Below the pieces are notes generated by a model, which ran no database searches, had not been told where the DNA came from, and saw only the letters and a list, made by a program, of their open reading frames with translations. The position numbers were made by a program, and so were the translations under genes. 21,069 nucleotides of DNA, from the IMG/VR virus record IMGVR_UViG_2630968342_000014. One strand, given 5' to 3'. Of this stretch, positions 9,917 through 21,069 are shown piece after piece. Source of the stretch: a virus (taxonomy: Duplodnaviria; Heunggongvirae; Uroviricota; Caudoviricetes). Position 1 is the first letter of the stretch; the number at the start of each line of letters is the position of its first letter.

Positions 9917-10496
9917 CCACAGTTTTAAGGAGATAGCCGTGGGTAAGCATCACTGGAAAATAGAAAAACAGCCTGAGTGGTACGTGAAAGCTGTCAGAAA
10001 AACTATCGCGGCGTTGCCGGGGGGTTACGCTGAAGCCGCTGACTGGCTGGATGTAACAGAGAACGCTTTATTCAATCGCCTTCGTGCCGATGGCGATCAG
10101 ATTTTCCCGCTGGGATGGGCAATGATTTTACAACGTGCTGGTGGAACTCACTTCATTGCTGACGCTGTGGCGCAGTCTGCAAATGGCGTCTTTGTGTCTC
10201 TTCCTGACGTCGAGGATGTGGACAACGCCGATATTAACCAGCGTCTGCTGGAAGTCATTGAACAGATCGGCAGTTATTCCAGACAGATTCGTTCAGCAAT
10301 CGAAGACGGTGTAGTGGAACCGCATGAGAAGACAGCAATTAACGACGAGCTGTACCTCTCAATTTCGAAGCTCCAGGAGCATGCAGCACTGGTCTACAAA
10401 ATCTTCTGCGCTCCAGAAAATAGTAACGCCCGCGAGTGTGCAGCTCCGGGCGTCGTGGCGTCGATTGCTTCTGGTTGTGGAGAAACTAACGCATGA
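9906..10496 (+). CDS. CII-like regulatory protein (YdaT / phage CP76-type, by position and size)
   Basis: The track ORF starts at TTG 9834; the in-frame ATG at 9906 (MKSNHSFKEIAVGK...) overlaps the cro-like stop. About 196 aa. Immediately downstream of cro as in YdaS/YdaT-type immunity modules. Family assignment from memory. Confidence 0.5.
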   Translation: MKSNHSFKEIAVGKHHWKIEKQPEWYVKAVRKTIAALPGGYAEAADWLDVTENALFNRLRADGDQIFPLGWAMILQRAGGTHFIADAVAQSANGVFVSLPDVEDVDNADINQRLLEVIEQIGSYSRQIRSAIEDGVVEPHEKTAINDELYLSISKLQEHAALVYKIFCAPENSNARECAAPGVVASIASGCGETNA

Positions 10497-10641
10497 ATAG
10501 TTTAACGGCAAATAACCGTTTGTCGCAACAGCTGGTGGTCAGCGTCGCTGAACACCTGTTGTTACGGCATGAATGCAGATTACCAAATCACCTGGCTGTA
10601 AGTAACCACAGAGAACTTTACCTGACTGTGGGGGGCGAGTT

Positions 10642-10821
10642 GTGCAGGAACTTAACCGCTGGTTTCGTGACGGAAGAGGACTTTATGTTCATGTTATTCG
10701 TTGGGAGCCAGAAACACAGCGCGTTATCTATCTTCGCAAAGACTACCCGCATGAGTGCTTTAGTCCTTTGTGGAAATTCAGGCGTGATTTTGTTGAGTGT
10801 GAAGGACCACCAGCATATTGA
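10642..10821 (+). CDS. Possible small ORF (59 aa, GTG start), not in the ORF track
   Basis: Hand translation: VQELNRWFRDGRGLYVHVIRWEPETQRVIYLRKDYPHECFSPLWKFRRDFVECEGPPAY, read from GTG at 10642 with a G-rich Shine-Dalgarno (GGGGGG at 10630-10635). Lies in a 600-bp gap that the track covers only with an implausible N-terminal extension of the rha ORF. Confidence 0.3.
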   Translation: MQELNRWFRDGRGLYVHVIRWEPETQRVIYLRKDYPHECFSPLWKFRRDFVECEGPPAY

Positions 10822-10907
10822 TTCTGCCATTTCGGGACGTTACACTGTCTCTGCACCTTATAAAGCGGGTGCCGGGATTGGCGTCCTGAAATTGATTACT
10901 GAGCATA

Positions 10908-10928
10908 ACCGCGCTCATGCGGTTTTTT
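10908..10928 (+). terminator. Candidate intrinsic terminator (tR1-like position)
   Basis: ACCGC-GCTCAT-GCGGT followed by TTTTTT: 5-bp GC-rich stem, 6-nt loop, U-tract. The reverse strand lacks a U-tract after the stem. Confidence 0.4.
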
Positions 10929-11098
10929 CGTGTCATGAGCATTGCTACGCCCAAATTATGGTGGGGCGTACAGGGCCGACTTCGGTCGGGCCGGGTTCGG
11001 TAGTCTCCGGTAACGCCAACCCTGTACGTCTCACCACCTCTGTGATTGGCGTCCCATGTGGTGAGTTTTCTAAAAAACTGACTACCGGGGCTGTCACT

Positions 11099-11656
11099 AT
11101 GACTACTCTCCCAACCCTCTCTCAACCTGAAATTGCCATCGTTGATGGTCAGGCTGTTACATCTTCTTTGGCTGTTGCTGACTTCTTCTCTAAACGTCAT
11201 GACGATGTTCTGAAAAAGATCCGCATTTTGGATTGTTCTCCAGAGTTTTGTGCCCGCAATTTTGCGGAGACATCAATTTTGGTACGCCAGCCCAACGGCG
11301 GTACTCGCAAACTACCTTGCTATCAAATAACCCGCGATGGCTTCGCGTTCCTTGCTATGGGCTTCACGGGTAAACGTGCTGCCCAGTTCAAAGAGGCATA
11401 CATCAATGCCTTTAACCAGATGGAGAAACAGCTTTCAAATCCCTCTGTACTGAGCGACGTTGCACATAACGCCAGCGTTCTCTATTCCTACATTTCATCA
11501 ATTCATCAGGTCTGGCTGCAGCAGCTTTATCCCATGTTGGCAAAAGCCGAATCCCCGCTGGCTGTAAGTCTGTATGACAGCATCAACGACGCGGCGCTAC
11601 TGGCCAGTCTCATAAATTTGTCGCTGAACCCTTCAGAGGTAAGGGGGCGCAAATGA
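11099..11656 (+). CDS. rha: Rha-family phage regulatory protein
   Basis: The N-terminus from the ATG at 11099 (MTTLPTLSQPEIAIVDGQAVTSSLAVADFFSKRHDDVLKKIRIL...ITRDGFAFLAMGFTGKRAAQFKEAYINAFNQME) matches the Phage_pRha domain pattern. The track ORF 10493-11656 fuses it to an upstream extension that looks non-coding. Confidence 0.8.
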   Translation: MTTLPTLSQPEIAIVDGQAVTSSLAVADFFSKRHDDVLKKIRILDCSPEFCARNFAETSILVRQPNGGTRKLPCYQITRDGFAFLAMGFTGKRAAQFKEAYINAFNQMEKQLSNPSVLSDVAHNASVLYSYISSIHQVWLQQLYPMLAKAESPLAVSLYDSINDAALLASLINLSLNPSEVRGRK

Positions 11657-16015: not shown

Positions 16016-17011
16016 GTGACCGTGAGAGCACTACTGACCCCTGAAATCGCCCCGCGTATGGGGATCGTATTGTTCAGGCCAGGTTCAGAGCTGATGCCCC
16101 TGTTTATGCAGGGGCGTGTCCTGCTGGAGCCTGAGCCGGAACGTTATTCATCTTTTGCCAGTGGTGCCGTTCCGGCAGCATCACAACCGCTGGCGGATGA
16201 TCCTGCCGTTCGGGCCGTGTTCCGCCATGAGGCGGTGATCCGTCGTGCTGGTGGCGTGGAATGCCTTGAGAGCTGGTTACTTCGTGAAAAGGGCTGTCAG
16301 TGGCCTCATTCCGACTGGCACAGCGAGAACATGACCACAATGCGGCACGCGCCAGGCGCAATCCGTCTGTGCTGGCACTGTGACAATCTTCTCCGTGACC
16401 AGTTCACGGAACGGCTGGAAGCAATGGCAACGGATAACTGTGCCCGCTGGGTGTTGTCTGTTGTGCGCCGTGATCTTGGTTTTGATGACAGTCACGTTGT
16501 GACAATGCCGGAACTGTGCTGGTGGCTGATTCGTAATGACCTGGCGGATGCCTTACCGGAAAGTGCAGCCCGTAAGGCACTGAGATTACCGAAGCCTGTT
16601 GTGCCGTCTGTCACCCGGGAAAGTGACCTTGTGCCTTCGGTTCCTGCCACCAGCATCATCCAGGATAAAGCGAAAAAGGTGCTGGCGCTGAAAGTGGATC
16701 CGGAGTCGCCGGAGTCTTTTATGTTACGCCCCAAACGTCGCCGCTGGGTTAATGAAAAGTACACGCGCTGGGTTAAGACGCAGCCGTGTGCATGTTGTGG
16801 AAAGCCTGCTGATGATCCCCACCATCTGATAGGCCACGGTCAGGGGGGAATGGGTACAAAAGCGCATGATCTCTTTGTGTTGCCTTTGTGCAGAAAGCAT
16901 CACGACGAGCTGCATGCGGATACCGTGGCATTTGAAGAGAAGTATGGCTCCCAGCTGGAGTTGATATTTCGTTTTATCGATCGTGCGCTGGCAATTGGTG
17001 TGCTGGCCTGA
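16016..17011 (+). CDS. DUF968-like protein with C-terminal HNH-like Cys/His zinc-binding motif
   Basis: C-terminus CACCGKPADDPHHLIGHGQGGMGTKAHDLFVLPLCRKHHDELH resembles the DUF968/HNH-like motif of Nin-region proteins in lambdoid prophages. Start uncertain: GTG at 16016 or 16022 after a GAGGTGA Shine-Dalgarno. Confidence 0.6.
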   Translation: MTVRALLTPEIAPRMGIVLFRPGSELMPLFMQGRVLLEPEPERYSSFASGAVPAASQPLADDPAVRAVFRHEAVIRRAGGVECLESWLLREKGCQWPHSDWHSENMTTMRHAPGAIRLCWHCDNLLRDQFTERLEAMATDNCARWVLSVVRRDLGFDDSHVVTMPELCWWLIRNDLADALPESAARKALRLPKPVVPSVTRESDLVPSVPATSIIQDKAKKVLALKVDPESPESFMLRPKRRRWVNEKYTRWVKTQPCACCGKPADDPHHLIGHGQGGMGTKAHDLFVLPLCRKHHDELHADTVAFEEKYGSQLELIFRFIDRALAIGVLA

Positions 17012-17028
17012 TTTTGTGGAGAAAGTTG

Positions 17029-17385
17029 ATGCGTGATATGTATGAAGTAATGGATCGTTGGGGAGCTTGGGCTGCTTCAGACAATAGCGGAGTGGACTGG
17101 CAGCCGATAGCGGCTGGTTTCAAGGGACTTTTACCTCATGGCAAAAAGTCACGGATTCAGTGTGATGATGACGAAGGCATCATGATAGACAGTTGTGTGG
17201 CTCGGTTGAGAAGGTATAAACCAGAGGAATATGAGCTCATCATCGCCCACTTTGTTATCGGTATCTCATTACGTACTATTGCGAAGAAGAGAAAATGCTC
17301 TGATGGCACAATTAGGAAGGAACTGCAAACTGCAATGGGGTTTGTTGACGGCTGTTTAGCAATGTTAGCTTATAGTATGGCATAA
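17029..17385 (+). CDS. Q: Late-gene antiterminator Q (small Q family)
   Basis: The ATG at 17029 has a GGAGAAAG Shine-Dalgarno (the track starts at TTG 17014). Motifs MDRWGAWAA, IAAGFKG, QCDDDEG and KCSDGTIRKELQ match the small Q-antiterminator family of phage 21/Rac-type prophages as I recall them. Confidence 0.8.
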   Translation: MRDMYEVMDRWGAWAASDNSGVDWQPIAAGFKGLLPHGKKSRIQCDDDEGIMIDSCVARLRRYKPEEYELIIAHFVIGISLRTIAKKRKCSDGTIRKELQTAMGFVDGCLAMLAYSMA

Positions 17386-18579
17386 AAAATAAAATAGATT
17401 TACTGCCGATTTTTCAAAAAAGACTGGGAACTGTTTATATCCAACGTAAATAAGGCCTCCATAAAACATGGCTGATGCGAGATATTTAACAGTTCTCATC
17501 CTTTTTTTAGCTTTATCAATCAAACCTGTAATGCTACTCTTAATACTATCTGCATTATCTTTGATTTCTTTATTTTCTTCAAACTTTAAATACTTATCGA
17601 AAGCGGACTCCACTCGAGAACGTAAGTTGTCGAATGTTTCATTGAATATCTCAATAGAAATGTAATTGACTTTTTTTATCATCCAAAGTCCTGCGATAAT
17701 CAATATTGCTTCGGTTGTTTCATTAGCCTTCACTAAGCCACCAGCAGCTATTAATGCACCGGGAATAGTCAATGCTTTTGTCTGATTAGATGATATGAAT
17801 TCGTTAATTTTACTCGTGAACTCAAGATTTTTCTCATCGAGTTCGTTAAGAATTTTATTTACAGAAAACCTCTTTGTGTAAATCTCATATAGTTCATCAT
17901 ATTTTTTCCTGACGAGTTCAGTAGAGTTAAGCAAGTCAAAGAAATTGAACGTACCATTTGCTTTAAATACTTCGTTTATGGCTGAGCGTATAACGAGCTT
18001 GCGCTCGCTTTTGTGTAAATCATTGATTTTTATTGTGTCGAGAAGCTCCTTTATAATTTCATATTTAAGAGACGAGTTCGATAAGCGATTAATCTCGCTA
18101 TATTGTAAAAAATGCGTGAGTTCGACTGTATAACTTTTGTCTTCATTGGTGAAAAATAAGACAGAGCAGTCACTGTTATGATGATCAGCAATTAATGAAA
18201 GGATATCTTTCCACATAAAGAAAATATGGATTTTTTCGATGCTTTCATTCTTAGAAGTAGGGAGTATTAACGGCGTTCCGATGATATAATTTTTCGGAAG
18301 AGCGTTTTGGGTGTTTACTCTAGACCAAAAAGACTCAACATTCTCATAAATTATAGCGTCATCCCAAGATGAAGCTTGGCGATCTAGCCAAATTTCATTA
18401 TTTTCGATGCAGGTTGTTGCCTTTTTATAACCTATAGATTGTAACAGTCTAATTATTTCAGAACTATTTACAATAACAATGCTTTCTTCAAGACTTATGA
18501 CAGTGTAGTAGCCCTCAACTCTGCTTGAGGCTCCGTTAATAATCTGCGCTAATCTTGATAAGTCATCAGCAATTGTCAT
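17365..18579 (-). CDS. Membrane protein (404 aa): about 265-aa soluble N-terminal domain plus C-terminal transmembrane segments; second gene of the AT-rich cassette
   Basis: The ATG at 18579 lies 2 nt after the upstream stop (coupled). Hydrophobic stretches ALTIPGALIAAGGLV, AILIIAGLWMI and YLASAMFYGGLIYVGY near the C-terminus. AT-rich. The 3' end overlaps the 3' end of Q by 21 bp (convergent). Confidence 0.65.
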   Translation of the reverse strand: MTIADDLSRLAQIINGASSRVEGYYTVISLEESIVIVNSSEIIRLLQSIGYKKATTCIENNEIWLDRQASSWDDAIIYENVESFWSRVNTQNALPKNYIIGTPLILPTSKNESIEKIHIFFMWKDILSLIADHHNSDCSVLFFTNEDKSYTVELTHFLQYSEINRLSNSSLKYEIIKELLDTIKINDLHKSERKLVIRSAINEVFKANGTFNFFDLLNSTELVRKKYDELYEIYTKRFSVNKILNELDEKNLEFTSKINEFISSNQTKALTIPGALIAAGGLVKANETTEAILIIAGLWMIKKVNYISIEIFNETFDNLRSRVESAFDKYLKFEENKEIKDNADSIKSSITGLIDKAKKRMRTVKYLASAMFYGGLIYVGYKQFPVFFEKSAVNLFYFLCHTIS

Positions 18580-18581
18580 TA

Positions 18582-19757
18582 TTAGCTGTCTCTATATCTT
18601 TTGAGTTCATCATAATTTGCCTGACTCAATTTTATCACAATTTCGCATTTGTTGTCAGTGAGAATTACAGGCTTATTTGACTTTTCGTCTCCAATAGCTC
18701 CACGCATTATTTTCAACTTAAAATTATTGTCGTTATCTGCCACTTCAATTGTAAGCGCGCTTTCAGCTGCTTTAGGAGTTGGTTCAAATTGAGGGTCAAT
18801 CTGGAAACCATTAAGATTAACAAAATCGACAAACGTTCCCTTACATTTGTGTGAATCAGTCAGGCATGAGTCAATTATTTTTGAAATATCCTCTATCTTA
18901 ACGGACTTATTTCCGTGTTTATCTTTTGATTTTTTTTCCAGTAAGGATTTAACTTCATTGTCAATAGTATCACGCAGTACACGACCGAGTGAGTTTTTAC
19001 TAGCAAAAATATCTATAGCACTGAATAATTGCTGAATGCTTCTTTTATTGTCCGAATCATGTCGGCAACCTAATGAGTCTTTGAAAAAATCGCTTTTAGA
19101 TTTACCTTGCAAGAAATGTACATATGAGTCACCCTTGTTTTCTGGATAACTGGCTTCGAATAAAGTTAAATCGAACATCGCAGCCTGCCGTAAGGCATCG
19201 GTATTAATTGGATTTAATCTTGTTGGGGTCAACTTATCCGAATCAAAGTCATAGGCGCTTTGTTTATCAACCATTACGATTAGAAGTTTCCCCAAATCCT
19301 CTGGTTCGGTAGACTTATAGTGGATGAAAACAACGCTCCCCCCCTGAAGTTGGGCAACTCTCGATTCGTTATTAGCATTATGTTTAAGCTTCTCTATTAT
19401 AGCTCTAGATAAATCAATGAATTCATTATTTTTATTAATGTATTTTTTTAGGATCGTAGGAATGGATGAAGGGTTGTGATCTGAGTCTAGGAAGTTATGA
19501 AATTTGTTTTTTCGGCTAAATTTTTTCTCAATTCTGGTTATGAATTCAGATGTGACTTCATTTTTTAGATCCCAAACTTCACCTAATCGATAATCAAATG
19601 CTCTTGAATCATTTTTTTCAAGATTTGCTGTTACAGCACCAATAGGAAAGTACGATTGTTTGCCCAGCACTACAACATGAGGCGTGGCACCGCATTTATC
19701 GCAAGCTACAGTTGGGTCGTCAAGAACATTGCCACATTCTAAACAAGTTATATCCAT
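18582..19757 (-). CDS. Zinc-ribbon plus NdpA/YejK-like (nucleoid-associated protein family) domain protein; first gene of the AT-rich cassette
   Basis: ATG at 19757. N-terminal C-x2-C-x12-C-x2-C zinc ribbon (CLECGNVLDDPTVACDKCG). Central region GGSVVFIHY...LLIVMVD...YVHFLQGKSKSDFFKDSLG parallels the E. coli YejK/NdpA blocks GGFVLFCHY...YLTFLKG...DFFMDFLG, recalled from memory. Strongly AT-rich with A/T-ending codons. Confidence 0.65.
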   Translation of the reverse strand: MDITCLECGNVLDDPTVACDKCGATPHVVVLGKQSYFPIGAVTANLEKNDSRAFDYRLGEVWDLKNEVTSEFITRIEKKFSRKNKFHNFLDSDHNPSSIPTILKKYINKNNEFIDLSRAIIEKLKHNANNESRVAQLQGGSVVFIHYKSTEPEDLGKLLIVMVDKQSAYDFDSDKLTPTRLNPINTDALRQAAMFDLTLFEASYPENKGDSYVHFLQGKSKSDFFKDSLGCRHDSDNKRSIQQLFSAIDIFASKNSLGRVLRDTIDNEVKSLLEKKSKDKHGNKSVKIEDISKIIDSCLTDSHKCKGTFVDFVNLNGFQIDPQFEPTPKAAESALTIEVADNDNNFKLKIMRGAIGDEKSNKPVILTDNKCEIVIKLSQANYDELKRYRDS

Positions 19758-19875
19758 TATATATCCCGAATTATAAGAATGAATTTTTATGTGGCTGAAA
19801 ATTCTATCAAAACACTAACGCGTACGCAAAAAGTATTGTATTGTGTTAAGAGTGGTTACTTCGCCACACAACTTA

Positions 19876-19899
19876 AACCCGCCACTGAGCGGGTTTTTT
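19876..19899 (+). terminator. Intrinsic terminator (plus-strand orientation)
   Basis: AACCCGC-CACTGA-GCGGGTT followed by TTTTTTG: 7-bp stem, 6-nt loop, run of six T. The reverse orientation has only a 3-U tract. Confidence 0.6.
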
Positions 19900-20023
19900 G
19901 TACCTGTAAACTTGGTGCAGTACAGTAAACACGCTGGTGGTCGTGAATACTGGCTTTTTATCTTGCTGGCTTTTTAGACAAGAGTTATTGGTATGTCACG
20001 TTAACCGGAAAGGGTAAAAAGAC

Positions 20024-20221
20024 ATGCTGAAACAGCAGGATATGACAGAAACCGCCAGAGTTGTGTTTGATGAATTAAGCGTTACCGAACCGGCGACAGT
20101 CGGGGAGATTGCGCAGAATACTTACCTTTCACGCGAACGCTGCCAGTTAATACTGACCCAGCTTGTTATGGCGGGTCTGGCAGACTATCAGTGCGGTTGT
20201 TACAGACGCCTTCAGTCCTGA
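20024..20221 (+). CDS. Small winged-helix-like regulator (65 aa), possibly PapI/FaeA-like
   Basis: ATG at 20024. TVGEIAQNTYLSRERCQLILTQLVMAGL resembles small wHTH regulators. A stem-loop with T-run (GCCTTC-AGTCCT-GAAGGC-TTTTTATTT, about 20207-20234) overlaps the stop. Family guess is low confidence. Confidence 0.45.
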   Translation: MLKQQDMTETARVVFDELSVTEPATVGEIAQNTYLSRERCQLILTQLVMAGLADYQCGCYRRLQS

Positions 20222-20355
20222 AGGCTTTTTATTTGTGGTGAATGGGCGGCTGGTGGGGGGGCGACACCTGTCAGTCCTTTGCTTATGTGTTGATGATAAT
20301 TTACCTTTTGGGGCTATAATTGAGCTAACCAATTGCTAATGAAAGTAAAATTATA

Positions 20356-21069
20356 ATGGCTGTTGTCTGTTCAGTTATCATGGTTTGCTCCCCAATTAAT
20401 ATTTTTCTTGAAAAGGATACGTTGTCACTTAAGCCAGGCTCAGTTGTTCTGGCCACCAAATGCATCAGGGAGCTTTTCCTTATGCATTATGGCAAAGTTA
20501 AAATTGTCGATATAAGCGAATCCGTCGTAAGTCAATATCTGGAAAGTCAGCATAAGCTGACGAGGACTCGTCTGACTGACATTCCGCTTTACCTGTTGCT
20601 GGAACCCAACAATCCTGCGTTGGCTGCGGCTTTAATTACCAGCCAGGGATTTTCCGGAGAGGCCACGGATATGTTTCTTATGATGGCCTGCCTGTCTCTG
20701 TTTGAAACAGATGAACGGATGTCATTGTTTTTAAGTGGATGTTTATCCAGCATAAGTGCCAAAGTCAGGGCGATAATTCAGACAGATATATCAGCAAGCT
20801 GGACGCTTGGTGCGATTGCTCTACAGTTGCATATGAGTGAGAGTTTGTTAAAGACAAAACTGAAAAATGAAGGGGGCATGTTCAGTCGCTTGTTGCTGGA
20901 AGAGCGGATGCGTGTTGCTGTAAATATGTTATGTTCCCGGCATGGATATGGACAGGCTATAGCAGAAAAATGCGGTTATTCAAGCAGGTCCTACTTTATT
21001 TCTGTATTTCACCGCTATTATGGCTTCCCGCCAGACAGATATGTATCCAGGCAAGGGCTTGATTATTGA
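20356..21069 (+). CDS. AraC-family transcriptional regulator, EnvY/AppY-like
   Basis: C-terminal double-HTH: RAIIQTDISASWTLGAIALQLHMSESLLKTKLKNEGGMFSRLLLEERMRVAVNMLCSRHGYGQAIAEKCGYSSRSYFISVFHRYYGFPP closely parallels EnvY/AppY as recalled (IIQSDIQHYW...LLKKKLKNE...CGYSSTSYFISVFK). N-terminus MAVVCSVIMVC parallels AppY MDYVCSVVFIC. Stop codon at the window end. Confidence 0.8.
   Translation: MAVVCSVIMVCSPINIFLEKDTLSLKPGSVVLATKCIRELFLMHYGKVKIVDISESVVSQYLESQHKLTRTRLTDIPLYLLLEPNNPALAAALITSQGFSGEATDMFLMMACLSLFETDERMSLFLSGCLSSISAKVRAIIQTDISASWTLGAIALQLHMSESLLKTKLKNEGGMFSRLLLEERMRVAVNMLCSRHGYGQAIAEKCGYSSRSYFISVFHRYYGFPPDRYVSRQGLDY

Follow-up and report, generated by a model that had tools for sequence, protein, structure and literature searches.

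An apparently orphaned hairpin behind an antisense anti-phage cassette is very probably the tR'-type terminator of a Q-dependent prophage late operon

Introduction

Which transcription is ended by a hairpin that has no gene in front of it? The question is raised by a stretch of viral DNA of 21,069 nucleotides (IMG/VR record IMGVR_UViG_2630968342_000014; the whole of this stretch is referred to as the window), in which a GC-rich hairpin with a T-run is found on the plus strand 2.49 kb downstream of the end of the Q antiterminator gene (17385), while the two large open reading frames in between both lie on the minus strand. Here, we report that the hairpin only looks orphaned, in that an anti-phage cassette of 2.4 kb separates the Q gene from the late promoter. 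The hairpin is very probably the promoter-proximal, tR'-type terminator of the Q-dependent late unit of the prophage, with the late promoter PR' located directly upstream of it.

The finding is already known in kind, as the Q, PR' and tR' cassette of lambda, 21, 82 and 933W, since existing annotations of 933W, SfV and Ayreon already mark the hairpin as a putative terminator. The arrangement resembles the PR', 6S RNA and tR' of lambda in its logic: a late promoter that is constitutive gives a short leader, which is terminated unless Q allows read-through to the lysis genes. The lambda leader is about 194 nt long, a pause element, AACGAT, occupies +1 to +6, and the Q-binding element is placed between the -35 and the -10. 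The Q protein of lambda is, however, a PF03589 protein that is non-homologous to the PF06530 Q of the window, and the lambda terminator differs in sequence from the window hairpin. PF06530 constitutes the Q21/Q933W family of Q proteins (Yin et al.). Phage 21 is similar to the window in that its Q belongs to the same Pfam family (Yin et al.) and in the order of Q, PR', pause element, terminator and late genes, but the window Q and Q21 show only a weak direct match (E = 0.0013).

Results

The hairpin and its rarity in the window

The features of the locus are collected in Table 1. The hairpin reads AAACCCGC-CACTGA-GCGGGTTT followed by TTT. Its stem pairs 19875-19882 with 19889-19896 through five G-C and three A-T pairs, the loop CACTGA occupies 19883-19888 and the T-run consists of six T (19894-19899). 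Folded as RNA, the segment 19870-19905 reached -12.0 kcal/mol (z = -3.3), and the predicted 55-nt transcript 19846-19900 formed two hairpins at -18.3 kcal/mol (z = -3.8), a stability that was attained in none of 200 shuffles. The features of an intrinsic terminator are thereby all present: a GC-rich stem, a loop of 6 nt, six U directly after the stem, an A-tract upstream and a stable fold. A custom scan of both strands of the 21 kb window, requiring five consecutive G/C pairs, a loop of 3-8 nt and then TTT with at least five T out of six, returned the hairpin as the sole site. Dinucleotide-preserving shuffles of the window yielded 0.017 sites of this class on average, with any site at all in 5 of 300 shuffles, and by this rarity an origin of the hairpin by chance is excluded.

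The hairpin was absent from the list produced by a general consensus scan of the window for terminators and promoters, probably because the A/T extension of the stem uses part of the T tail. No Rfam family matched in the region of the hairpin at the gathering threshold. When E values up to 10 were allowed, isrK reached only 13 bits at the hairpin and leader, and the matches to isrK, Trp-leader and Leu-leader (13-17 bits) were put down to generic terminator features. In a preliminary description of the window, made from the sequence alone, a strong plus-strand terminator had been assigned to 19760-19900. The hairpin is indeed there but fills only the last 25 bases of that interval, the rest of which is made up of the 5' flank of a minus-strand gene (starting at 19757) and about 60 bp of promoter.

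Table 1. Positions of the predicted and annotated features around the hairpin, with the evidence for each.
Feature	Position	Strand	Evidence
Q antiterminator gene, 118 aa, Q21/Q933W family	17029..17385	+	Pfam PF06530; RefSeq 'antiterminator Q family protein'
DS1_2, DS-1 anti-phage system	17365..18579	-	NCBIfam
DS1_1, with YejK/NA37 nucleoid-associated domain	18582..19757	-	NCBIfam; Pfam NA37
Candidate promoter of the antisense cassette (TTGATA, 16 bp, AAAAAT)	19783..19810	-	Consensus scan only, 9/12 matches
Late promoter PR' (predicted)	19815..19844	+	Column-for-column alignment with annotated 933W pR' and Sakai Sp5
Predicted PR' leader RNA, about 49 nt	19851..19899	+	Start site transferred from Sakai; BLAST; fold
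Promoter-proximal intrinsic terminator (tR'-type) of the late operon (probable)	19875..19899	+	Sequence, fold, rarity, homologues annotated as terminators
Second, weak terminator-like hairpin with TTTTT	19933..19959	+	Scan match: 7 pairs, 3 G-C
First late-operon ORF, 65 aa, weak TrmB-like wHTH; orf47 of SfV	20024..20233	+	ORF list; Pfam
AraC-family regulator gene (YdeO/GadX-like)	20356..21069	+	Pfam HTH_AraC, HTH_18; NCBIfam YdeO-like below cutoff

The predicted late promoter and its leader

The segment 19812-19905 aligns with a block of phage 933W (sequence ...GTTTACGATCGTAAAAATCTGCATATCATGATAAGAGTGGTTACATTGCCACGCAGTCGAACCCGCCGATGCGCGGGTTTTTTT) that carries the annotations pR' (20666-20693), qut (20707-20714) and 'possible rho-independent terminator' (20726-20748), with the homology covering 19815-19899. 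Sakai Sp5 is identical to 933W here, and the -10, the start site, the 5' stem-loop and the terminator hairpin of the window have homologues in 933W and Sp5 as well as in the Stx1 phage Sp15. The homologue of the 933W pR' is thus positioned on the plus strand 25-60 bp upstream of the hairpin. It is composed of a -35-like CTAACG (19815-19820), the palindrome GCGTACGC (19820-19827), an A5 tract (19828-19832) and the -10 hexamer TATTGT (19839-19844). The -35 is poor and is set apart from the -10 by a spacer of 18 bp, and on account of this weak -35 PR' was neither called in the consensus promoter scan of the window nor seen in the preliminary description. The alignment includes five diverged Q clades, all of which have the same A and T at positions 2 and 6 of the -10 hexamer (A19840 and T19844 in the window), and by our own reading the pattern nAnnnT is kept in all 82 leader sequence variants inspected. 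RefSeq annotates nothing at the late promoter of the prophage.

The preliminary description had found no plus-strand gene feeding into the terminator and no PR' between Q and the cassette. The former statement holds for genes, the intervening reading frames being on the minus strand, but not for promoters, as the homologue of the 933W pR' lies upstream of the hairpin. The latter is correct, because the PR' unit sits on the downstream side of the cassette.

In Sakai, the PR' start has been mapped by dRNA-seq, the promoter is constitutively active, and this start and a 3' end determined by Term-seq are 258 nt apart (PMC7547250). When this spacing is counted back from the T-run of the second terminator, +1 becomes the A in the middle of AAG-A-GTGG in Sakai. 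Transferred to the window, the mapped start predicts initiation near A19851 (possibly 19848-19851) and a leader that would comprise a 5' stem-loop, GUGGU-UACUUC-GCCAC (19852-19867), a spacer and then the terminator. By BLAST, nucleotides 1-54 of StxS-L match 19851-19904 of the window at 80% identity, while the remaining 204 nt, including the functional 74-nt StxS-S segment, gave no match in the window. At this point 933W has another 200 nt, which form the StxS body, and then its second terminator at +258, whereas the window has the module of the 65-aa ORF instead. RNAalifold returned a two-hairpin consensus for 28 distinct leader variants, and two of four terminator pairs were changed on both sides, in 4 and 3 sequences. 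The outer stem of the terminator is largely invariant and therefore uninformative on compensatory change.

No convincing candidate for a sigma-dependent pause element could be recognised within the initially transcribed region. At +7 to +12 the window has TACTTC where 933W has TACATT, inside the annotated qut, so that the T at position 6 is absent in the window. This position varies between C, T and A among the relatives, and the same bases also form the loop of the conserved 5' stem-loop (UACAUU in 933W, UACUUC in the window). A lambda-like pause register, AAGAGT (19848-19853), considered by analogy with AACGAT, was rejected as the transferred start site falls inside it.

[quoted passage not shown]

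The Q protein of the window matches PF06530 with E = 2.7e-47 over model positions 1-115 of 118 and is 46% identical to the Q of 933W, which belongs to the same Pfam family. Its C-terminus is short: the window-type Q has 118 aa compared to 126-157 aa in relatives, including those without the cassette. Q and the convergent cassette gene share 21 bp at their 3' ends. The two cassette genes, DS1_2 and DS1_1, score above the NCBIfam cutoffs of the DS-1 pair (NF053869, 375 bits, cutoff 315; NF053868, 451 bits, cutoff 330), and PADLOC 2023 gave no match for the cassette. DS-1 is one of the DS systems of the DefensePredictor study, in which such systems were validated, among them one that contains a YejK nucleoid-associated domain (PMC13092281).

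The cassette spans 17365-19757 and is thereby located between the stop codon of Q and PR', in contrast to 933W, where Q adjoins pR' and only 18 bp separate its stop codon from the motif. The preliminary description had pictured the cassette as inserted into the 6S/qut region, which is not the case, since PR', leader and terminator are intact downstream of it. The candidate promoter of the cassette stands back-to-back with PR' within cassette-specific sequence, and similarity to relatives with other cassettes begins only at 19805-19809, upstream of PR'. Judged from these comparisons, the DS-1 cassette is not part of the terminator unit, as relatives carry other cassettes or none in its place.

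A lambdoid prophage carried by O104:H4-like and other E. coli shows 100% identity to the window over bases 16900-21069. The gene order in these identical genomes (L001) is a DUF968 gene, Q, the two antisense genes, the 65-aa ORF and the AraC-type gene, followed by tRNA-Ile, two tRNA-Arg and the nanS-p esterase and then, still downstream of the hairpin, by the lysis genes for holin, lysozyme and Rz. The antisense pair is named 'anti-phage protein' and 'nucleoid-associated anti-phage protein' in them. A tRNA scan gave no tRNA within the window, the Ile/Arg/Arg tRNAs being situated just beyond it, as in L001. The head of the late operon with the ileZ/argN/argO tRNAs, nanS-p and the lysis genes is common to this prophage and 933W, and the locus represents the late region of a phage of the Stx type that carries no stx.

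The 65-aa ORF matches Pfam TrmB with E = 0.003, which is below the cutoff. It has a terminator-like site of its own (20208-20233, stem 20208-20225; a scan match) and accompanies the hairpin in over 1000 E. coli genomes as well as in many Stx phages. The slot of the AraC-like gene is taken by a DNA methylase in relatives.

Relatives and the survey of IMG/VR loci

Matches to the region 19758-20260 occur in 3029 of 5426 complete E. coli genomes and in 112 phage records, and the window-type block of PR', leader and terminator is present in 570 of the 5426 genomes. Similarity within the region breaks at 19805-19809, 19822, 19844 and 19876-19878, the last of which coincides with the start of the hairpin. 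Different DNA is found on the Q side of the block. The relative L009 has a PF06530 Q that is 57% identical to that of the window and no cassette; the stop codon of its Q precedes the leader motif by 41 bp and the hairpin by about 70 bp. Stx2a_1447 and FDAARGOS_1257, whose Q proteins are 92% and 89% identical to that of the window, have different antisense two-gene cassettes at the position of DS-1 and then the same block from promoter to hairpin, while phiP27 has a sense-strand GIY-YIG gene at the cassette position. A prophage of AR Bank #0349 (L007) has the same Q, the DS-1 cassette and the hairpin, and then directly a lambda-type holin.

The hairpin also occurs behind a Q of another kind. 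SfV, E2863 and Ayreon encode a Q of the Q-lambda family, PF03589, that is unrelated to the Q of the window. The 'putative rho-independent terminator' annotated downstream of Q in SfV (U82619, 33675-33710) is essentially the hairpin of the window together with the module of the 65-aa ORF, orf47. In SfV and E2863 a lambda-like PR' lies directly upstream of the window-type hairpin (TTGCAT, 17 bp, TAAGAT and then AACGATGGG, which is lambda's own initially transcribed sequence), and the leader is similar in length to that of the window. Ayreon has the hairpin and the 65-aa ORF module, but Q is separated from them by two small ORFs and a further annotated terminator. At least four different late modules follow the T-run in different phages. 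The hairpin is therefore a recombination boundary common to two Q systems and does not belong to the DS-1 cassette.

A scan of IMG/VR for the leader motif AAGAGTGGTTACNTNGCCAC gave at least 120 stretches and, with other fetched loci, a total of 129 motif-bearing sequences, 113 of which had enough upstream DNA for Q to be found. The statements that follow apply to the matches listed. A PF06530 Q was located upstream of the motif in 113 of 113 loci. Q adjoins the motif (6-41 bp) in 33 of these and is 0.5-3 kb away from it, with varied cargo in between, in the other 80. The preliminary description had proposed that cassette-free relatives be inspected for Q directly before the terminator, and this is the arrangement seen in L009 and in the 33 loci. 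A GC hairpin with a T-run was found 3' of the motif in 126 of 129 loci, and the remaining three have a single mismatch or a shorter stem.

Several motif loci have non-homologous terminator stems (CCTCGC/GCGGGG, CCCTGCC/GGCGGGG and GCCCAC/GTGGG), the loops vary freely while stems persist, and a variant with a weakened stem (GCGG for GCGGG) is found in at least 24 motif loci. The retention or replacement of hairpin and T-run, together with the compensatory pairs, is the pattern expected of a selected terminator.

The inserts between Q and PR' belong, among the matches listed, to 48 protein families in 30 architectures, and the 80 occupied loci are antisense only in 63 cases, sense only in 14 and mixed in 3. 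Among the ten most frequent insert families, which were tested further, some match PDC-S20 / PifA-like KAP NTPase, PDC-M53B or dcm-type methylase. These are known or candidate defence proteins. No description of the junction of Q and PR' as a frequent and mostly antisense cargo site was found in the literature examined, although one may already exist.

A candidate Q-binding palindrome

The promoter contains a palindrome of 8-9 bp at about -31 to -24, which is constant within Q clades and different between them: ACGATCGT in 933W, GCGTACGC in the window, GCGGTCCGC in the L009 clade, GGAATTCC in P27 and GTTATAAC in the L017 clade. The corresponding -35 and palindrome segments are TTTACGATCGT in 933W and CTAACGCGTACGC in the window. 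This clade specificity suggests that the palindrome is a candidate Q-binding element, which would be unlike that of Q21, where a direct repeat with two 8-bp subsites is bound (Yin et al.) and not a single palindrome of 8-9 bp.

Co-variation of palindrome and Q was weighed against plain linkage by seeking one cassette family common to different Q clades. None was found in the sampled IMG/VR loci, among the matches listed, and the co-variation may for that reason be due to physical linkage. No description of a palindrome at -31 to -24 that changes with the clade was found in the literature examined, and an earlier description is possible.

Discussion

The hairpin at 19875-19899 is, with high probability, an element of a known kind, the tR'-type terminator of a Q-dependent late operon, and termination in vivo is part of what this assignment predicts. 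In the lysogen, RNA polymerase would start at PR' (at about A19851) and yield a leader of about 49 nt. Unmodified polymerase from this constitutive promoter would be stopped by the hairpin and released at 19896-19900, before the wHTH ORF, the AraC-like gene, the tRNAs, nanS-p and the lysis genes. Upon induction, Q would be made from the early rightward transcript and load on polymerase at PR', allowing it to read through the hairpin, then the weak 19933-19959 site and the terminator that follows the 65-aa ORF, into the lysis genes. The gap of 2.4 kb created by DS-1 would leave this circuit unbroken because Q acts in trans on its DNA site. The comparisons directly show the conserved hairpin, its homology to the 933W/Sp5 pR' block, a PF06530 Q upstream in every locus where Q could be located, and the late genes downstream; promoter activity at this locus, termination in vivo and Q-dependent read-through are what we infer for the window. 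Among the possibilities raised in the preliminary description, that of a tR'-like element separated from Q by the cassette was essentially right. An insulator protecting the downstream genes against late read-through would have it backwards, as transcription modified by Q is expected to read through.

How tight such a terminator would be is a matter on which the Sakai data bear directly. It is conceivable, but in our opinion unlikely, that the hairpin is mainly a leaky attenuator or a structural part of the leader that serves RNA stability or Q engagement, with the block to late transcription spread over the terminators downstream. In Sakai Sp5 and Sp15, where the homologous first hairpin covers +27 to +49, PR' transcripts continue beyond it and give rise to StxS, and the 3' end that was assigned to tR' from Term-seq lies at +258 (PMC7547250). 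The first hairpin of Sakai is thus either leaky, or its product of about 50 nt was not recovered or not discussed. The common variant with a weaker stem and the additional terminator-like sites that follow the hairpin (19933-19959 and 20208-20233) are also in line with attenuation. Against it, five G-C pairs with six U and an upstream A-tract are textbook features of an efficient terminator, and non-homologous replacements always restore hairpin and T-run, which argues for selection on termination. The second site at 19933-19959, conserved in sequence among relatives, is thermodynamically weak and its fold is not significant (-7.4 kcal/mol, z = -1.2). Moreover, short species near 50 nt are not discussed in the Sakai study, and its column-kit RNA preparation (PMC7547250) may, in our judgement, under-recover RNAs of that size.

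The product of termination might itself be of use to the phage. The preliminary description had suggested an sRNA made from 19780-19875; a short RNA is predicted here as well, but from 19851-19899 and with a length of about 49 nt. That this leader acts in trans, like StxS or as proposed for lambda 6S, and that the hairpin serves as its terminator and Hfq end, is a reading compatible with the tR' explanation, to which we nevertheless give a low probability. The high conservation of the leader across Q clades, with its 5' stem-loop and Rho-independent 3' end, and the occurrence of the block in so many E. coli genomes count in favour of an sRNA, and StxS, which is derived from PR', binds Hfq and regulates in trans, antiterminated promoters having been proposed as a source of sRNAs (PMC7547250). 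The functional 74-nt StxS-S is, however, encoded downstream of the first hairpin in 933W and is without a homologue in the window, no Rfam family is reached at the gathering threshold (the isrK match being that of 13 bits), and the conservation of the leader is equally well explained by promoter-proximal and qut functions. By far the least probable reading, and one we regard as scarcely tenable, is that the hairpin belongs to the cassette, either as a bidirectional insulator for the cassette promoter or as the point at which a minus-strand RNA ends. The hairpin does have a symmetric build, in which an A-run precedes and a T-run follows the stem, and its minus strand folds as well as the plus strand (-13.4 kcal/mol, z = -3.5), but the minus-strand tail UUUAAGUU is poor, cassette-specific sequence stops at about 19805-19809, upstream of PR', and the hairpin is present in the cassette-free L009, 933W and SfV and beside some 30 unrelated cassettes. 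A weak Rfam match to STnc130 on the minus strand (19867-19989) ends at the hairpin; it was dismissed, as its 28.3 bits are below the gathering score of 55, it rests on the A-run and the stem, and STnc130 is listed next to dmsA in Salmonella, which is not a comparable context. We take this dmsA locus to be core-genome and not prophage.

With the tR'-type terminator as the preferred reading, the unit of PR', leader and terminator may in addition have a role for the DNA on its Q side. It is a tentative and rather doubtful proposition that the unit constitutes the fixed right border of a hotspot for cargo exchange between Q and PR' in lambdoid prophages of the Q933W family, based on the 80 of 113 loci that are occupied (among the matches listed), mostly by antisense inserts and including several validated or candidate defence systems. 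In such a hotspot the terminator may insulate the late genes, and the constitutive back-to-back promoters may organise how the cargo is expressed. Antisense transcripts that extend from the cargo into Q might, by analogy with lambda paQ, damp Q in the lysogen, and a separate function may fall to the conserved leader of about 49 nt.

The apparent orphan is hence resolved to a textbook element, and the position of the late promoter of the prophage is shown. Several Stx prophages have been described to 'lack the pR' site' of the reference (Zhang et al. 2018). Where cargo comes after a PF06530 Q, PR' and tR' need to be looked for on the downstream side of that cargo. This layout matters for the prediction of Stx and late-gene control in Stx phages such as Stx2a_1447/WGPS2.

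The PR' leader and its first hairpin

The leader RNA of the predicted late promoter PR' begins with a conserved stem-loop (table). In the relative that carries the hairpin directly before holin, L007, three substitutions have moved the stem to GUGUG / CACAC with a 5-bp helix retained, and the annotated 'qut' of 933W overlaps the loop and the 5' arm of this leader structure. A strong first hairpin homologous to that at 19875-19899 in the window is found at +27 to +49 in both Sakai and 933W, where the published tR' (3' end at +258, yielding the sRNA StxS) is located downstream of it. In these two phages, then, either polymerase leaks past the first hairpin, or there is an unreported RNA of about 50 nt.

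Features in the window and in two reference loci
Feature	Position	Strand	Remarks
Palindrome GCGTACGC	window 19820-19827		~-31 to -24 of PR'; 8-9 bp; directly 5' of conserved A5 tract
5'-terminal stem-loop of PR' leader	window 19852-19867		GUGGU / GCCAC, 6-nt loop; conserved
isrK	window 10853-10929	+	Rfam, 59 bits
C4 antisense RNA	window 10954-11041	+	Rfam, 82 bits; immediately 3' of isrK
Promoter-like site	window 20293-20320		ATGATA, 16 bp, TATAAT; just 5' of AraC-family gene
AraC-family gene	window 20356-21069		YdeO/GadX-like (below NCBIfam cutoffs)
First hairpin / published tR', Sakai Sp5 (L013)	772-797 / 980-1003
First hairpin / published tR', 933W (L012)	1227-1249 / 1430-1458

A palindrome upstream of the PR' -10

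Counterparts of the palindrome occupy the equivalent position in 933W, in the cassette-free relative L009 and in loci L006 and L017; its sequence is constant inside each Q clade and differs from clade to clade. Such a pattern makes it a candidate for the Q933W-type Q-binding element, although the match between palindrome and Q clade may also reflect physical linkage. The element reported for Q21 is a direct repeat, in contrast to the palindrome of the window and the Q933W-type relatives.

Other regulatory loci

The isrK and C4 RNAs constitute a P1/P7-type c4-like immunity RNA pair within the lambdoid prophage of the window. A mechanically called 387-aa ORF (10493-11656, same strand) overlaps both. 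Most relatives have a DNA methyltransferase in the slot taken by the AraC-family gene.

The DS-1 cassette and the cargo between Q and PR'

The 3' end of the antisense anti-phage operon DS-1 overlaps Q convergently by 21 bp (17365-17385). Neither ahead of Q nor inside it did a simple scan of the window reveal a terminator-like site on the minus strand, so transcription of the cassette may continue across Q in the antisense direction, reminiscent of lambda paQ. At the other end, direct reading of the sequence identified a minus-strand TATAAT with no mismatch (19775-19770), 13 bp 5' of the DS1_1 start codon, which would give a nearly leaderless DS1_1 mRNA and is an alternative to the scan-predicted cassette promoter at 19810-19783.

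Cargo was surveyed in window 17386-19814 and in IMG/VR loci from the leader-motif scan (L014-L133), with 113 PF06530-Q loci among the matches listed. Among these matches, inserts of 0.5-3 kb separated Q from PR' in 80 of the 113, comprising 48 protein families in 30 architectures; the insert was purely antisense in 63 loci, purely sense in 14 and mixed in 3. Known or candidate defence systems included DS-1, PDC-S20/PifA-like, PDC-M53B and a dcm-type methylase. Wherever Q was at least 82% identical to that of the window, among the matches listed, a cassette was present and the Q C-terminus shortened. In prophages with a PF06530 Q, the interval from the Q stop codon to PR' is thus a hotspot for cargo.
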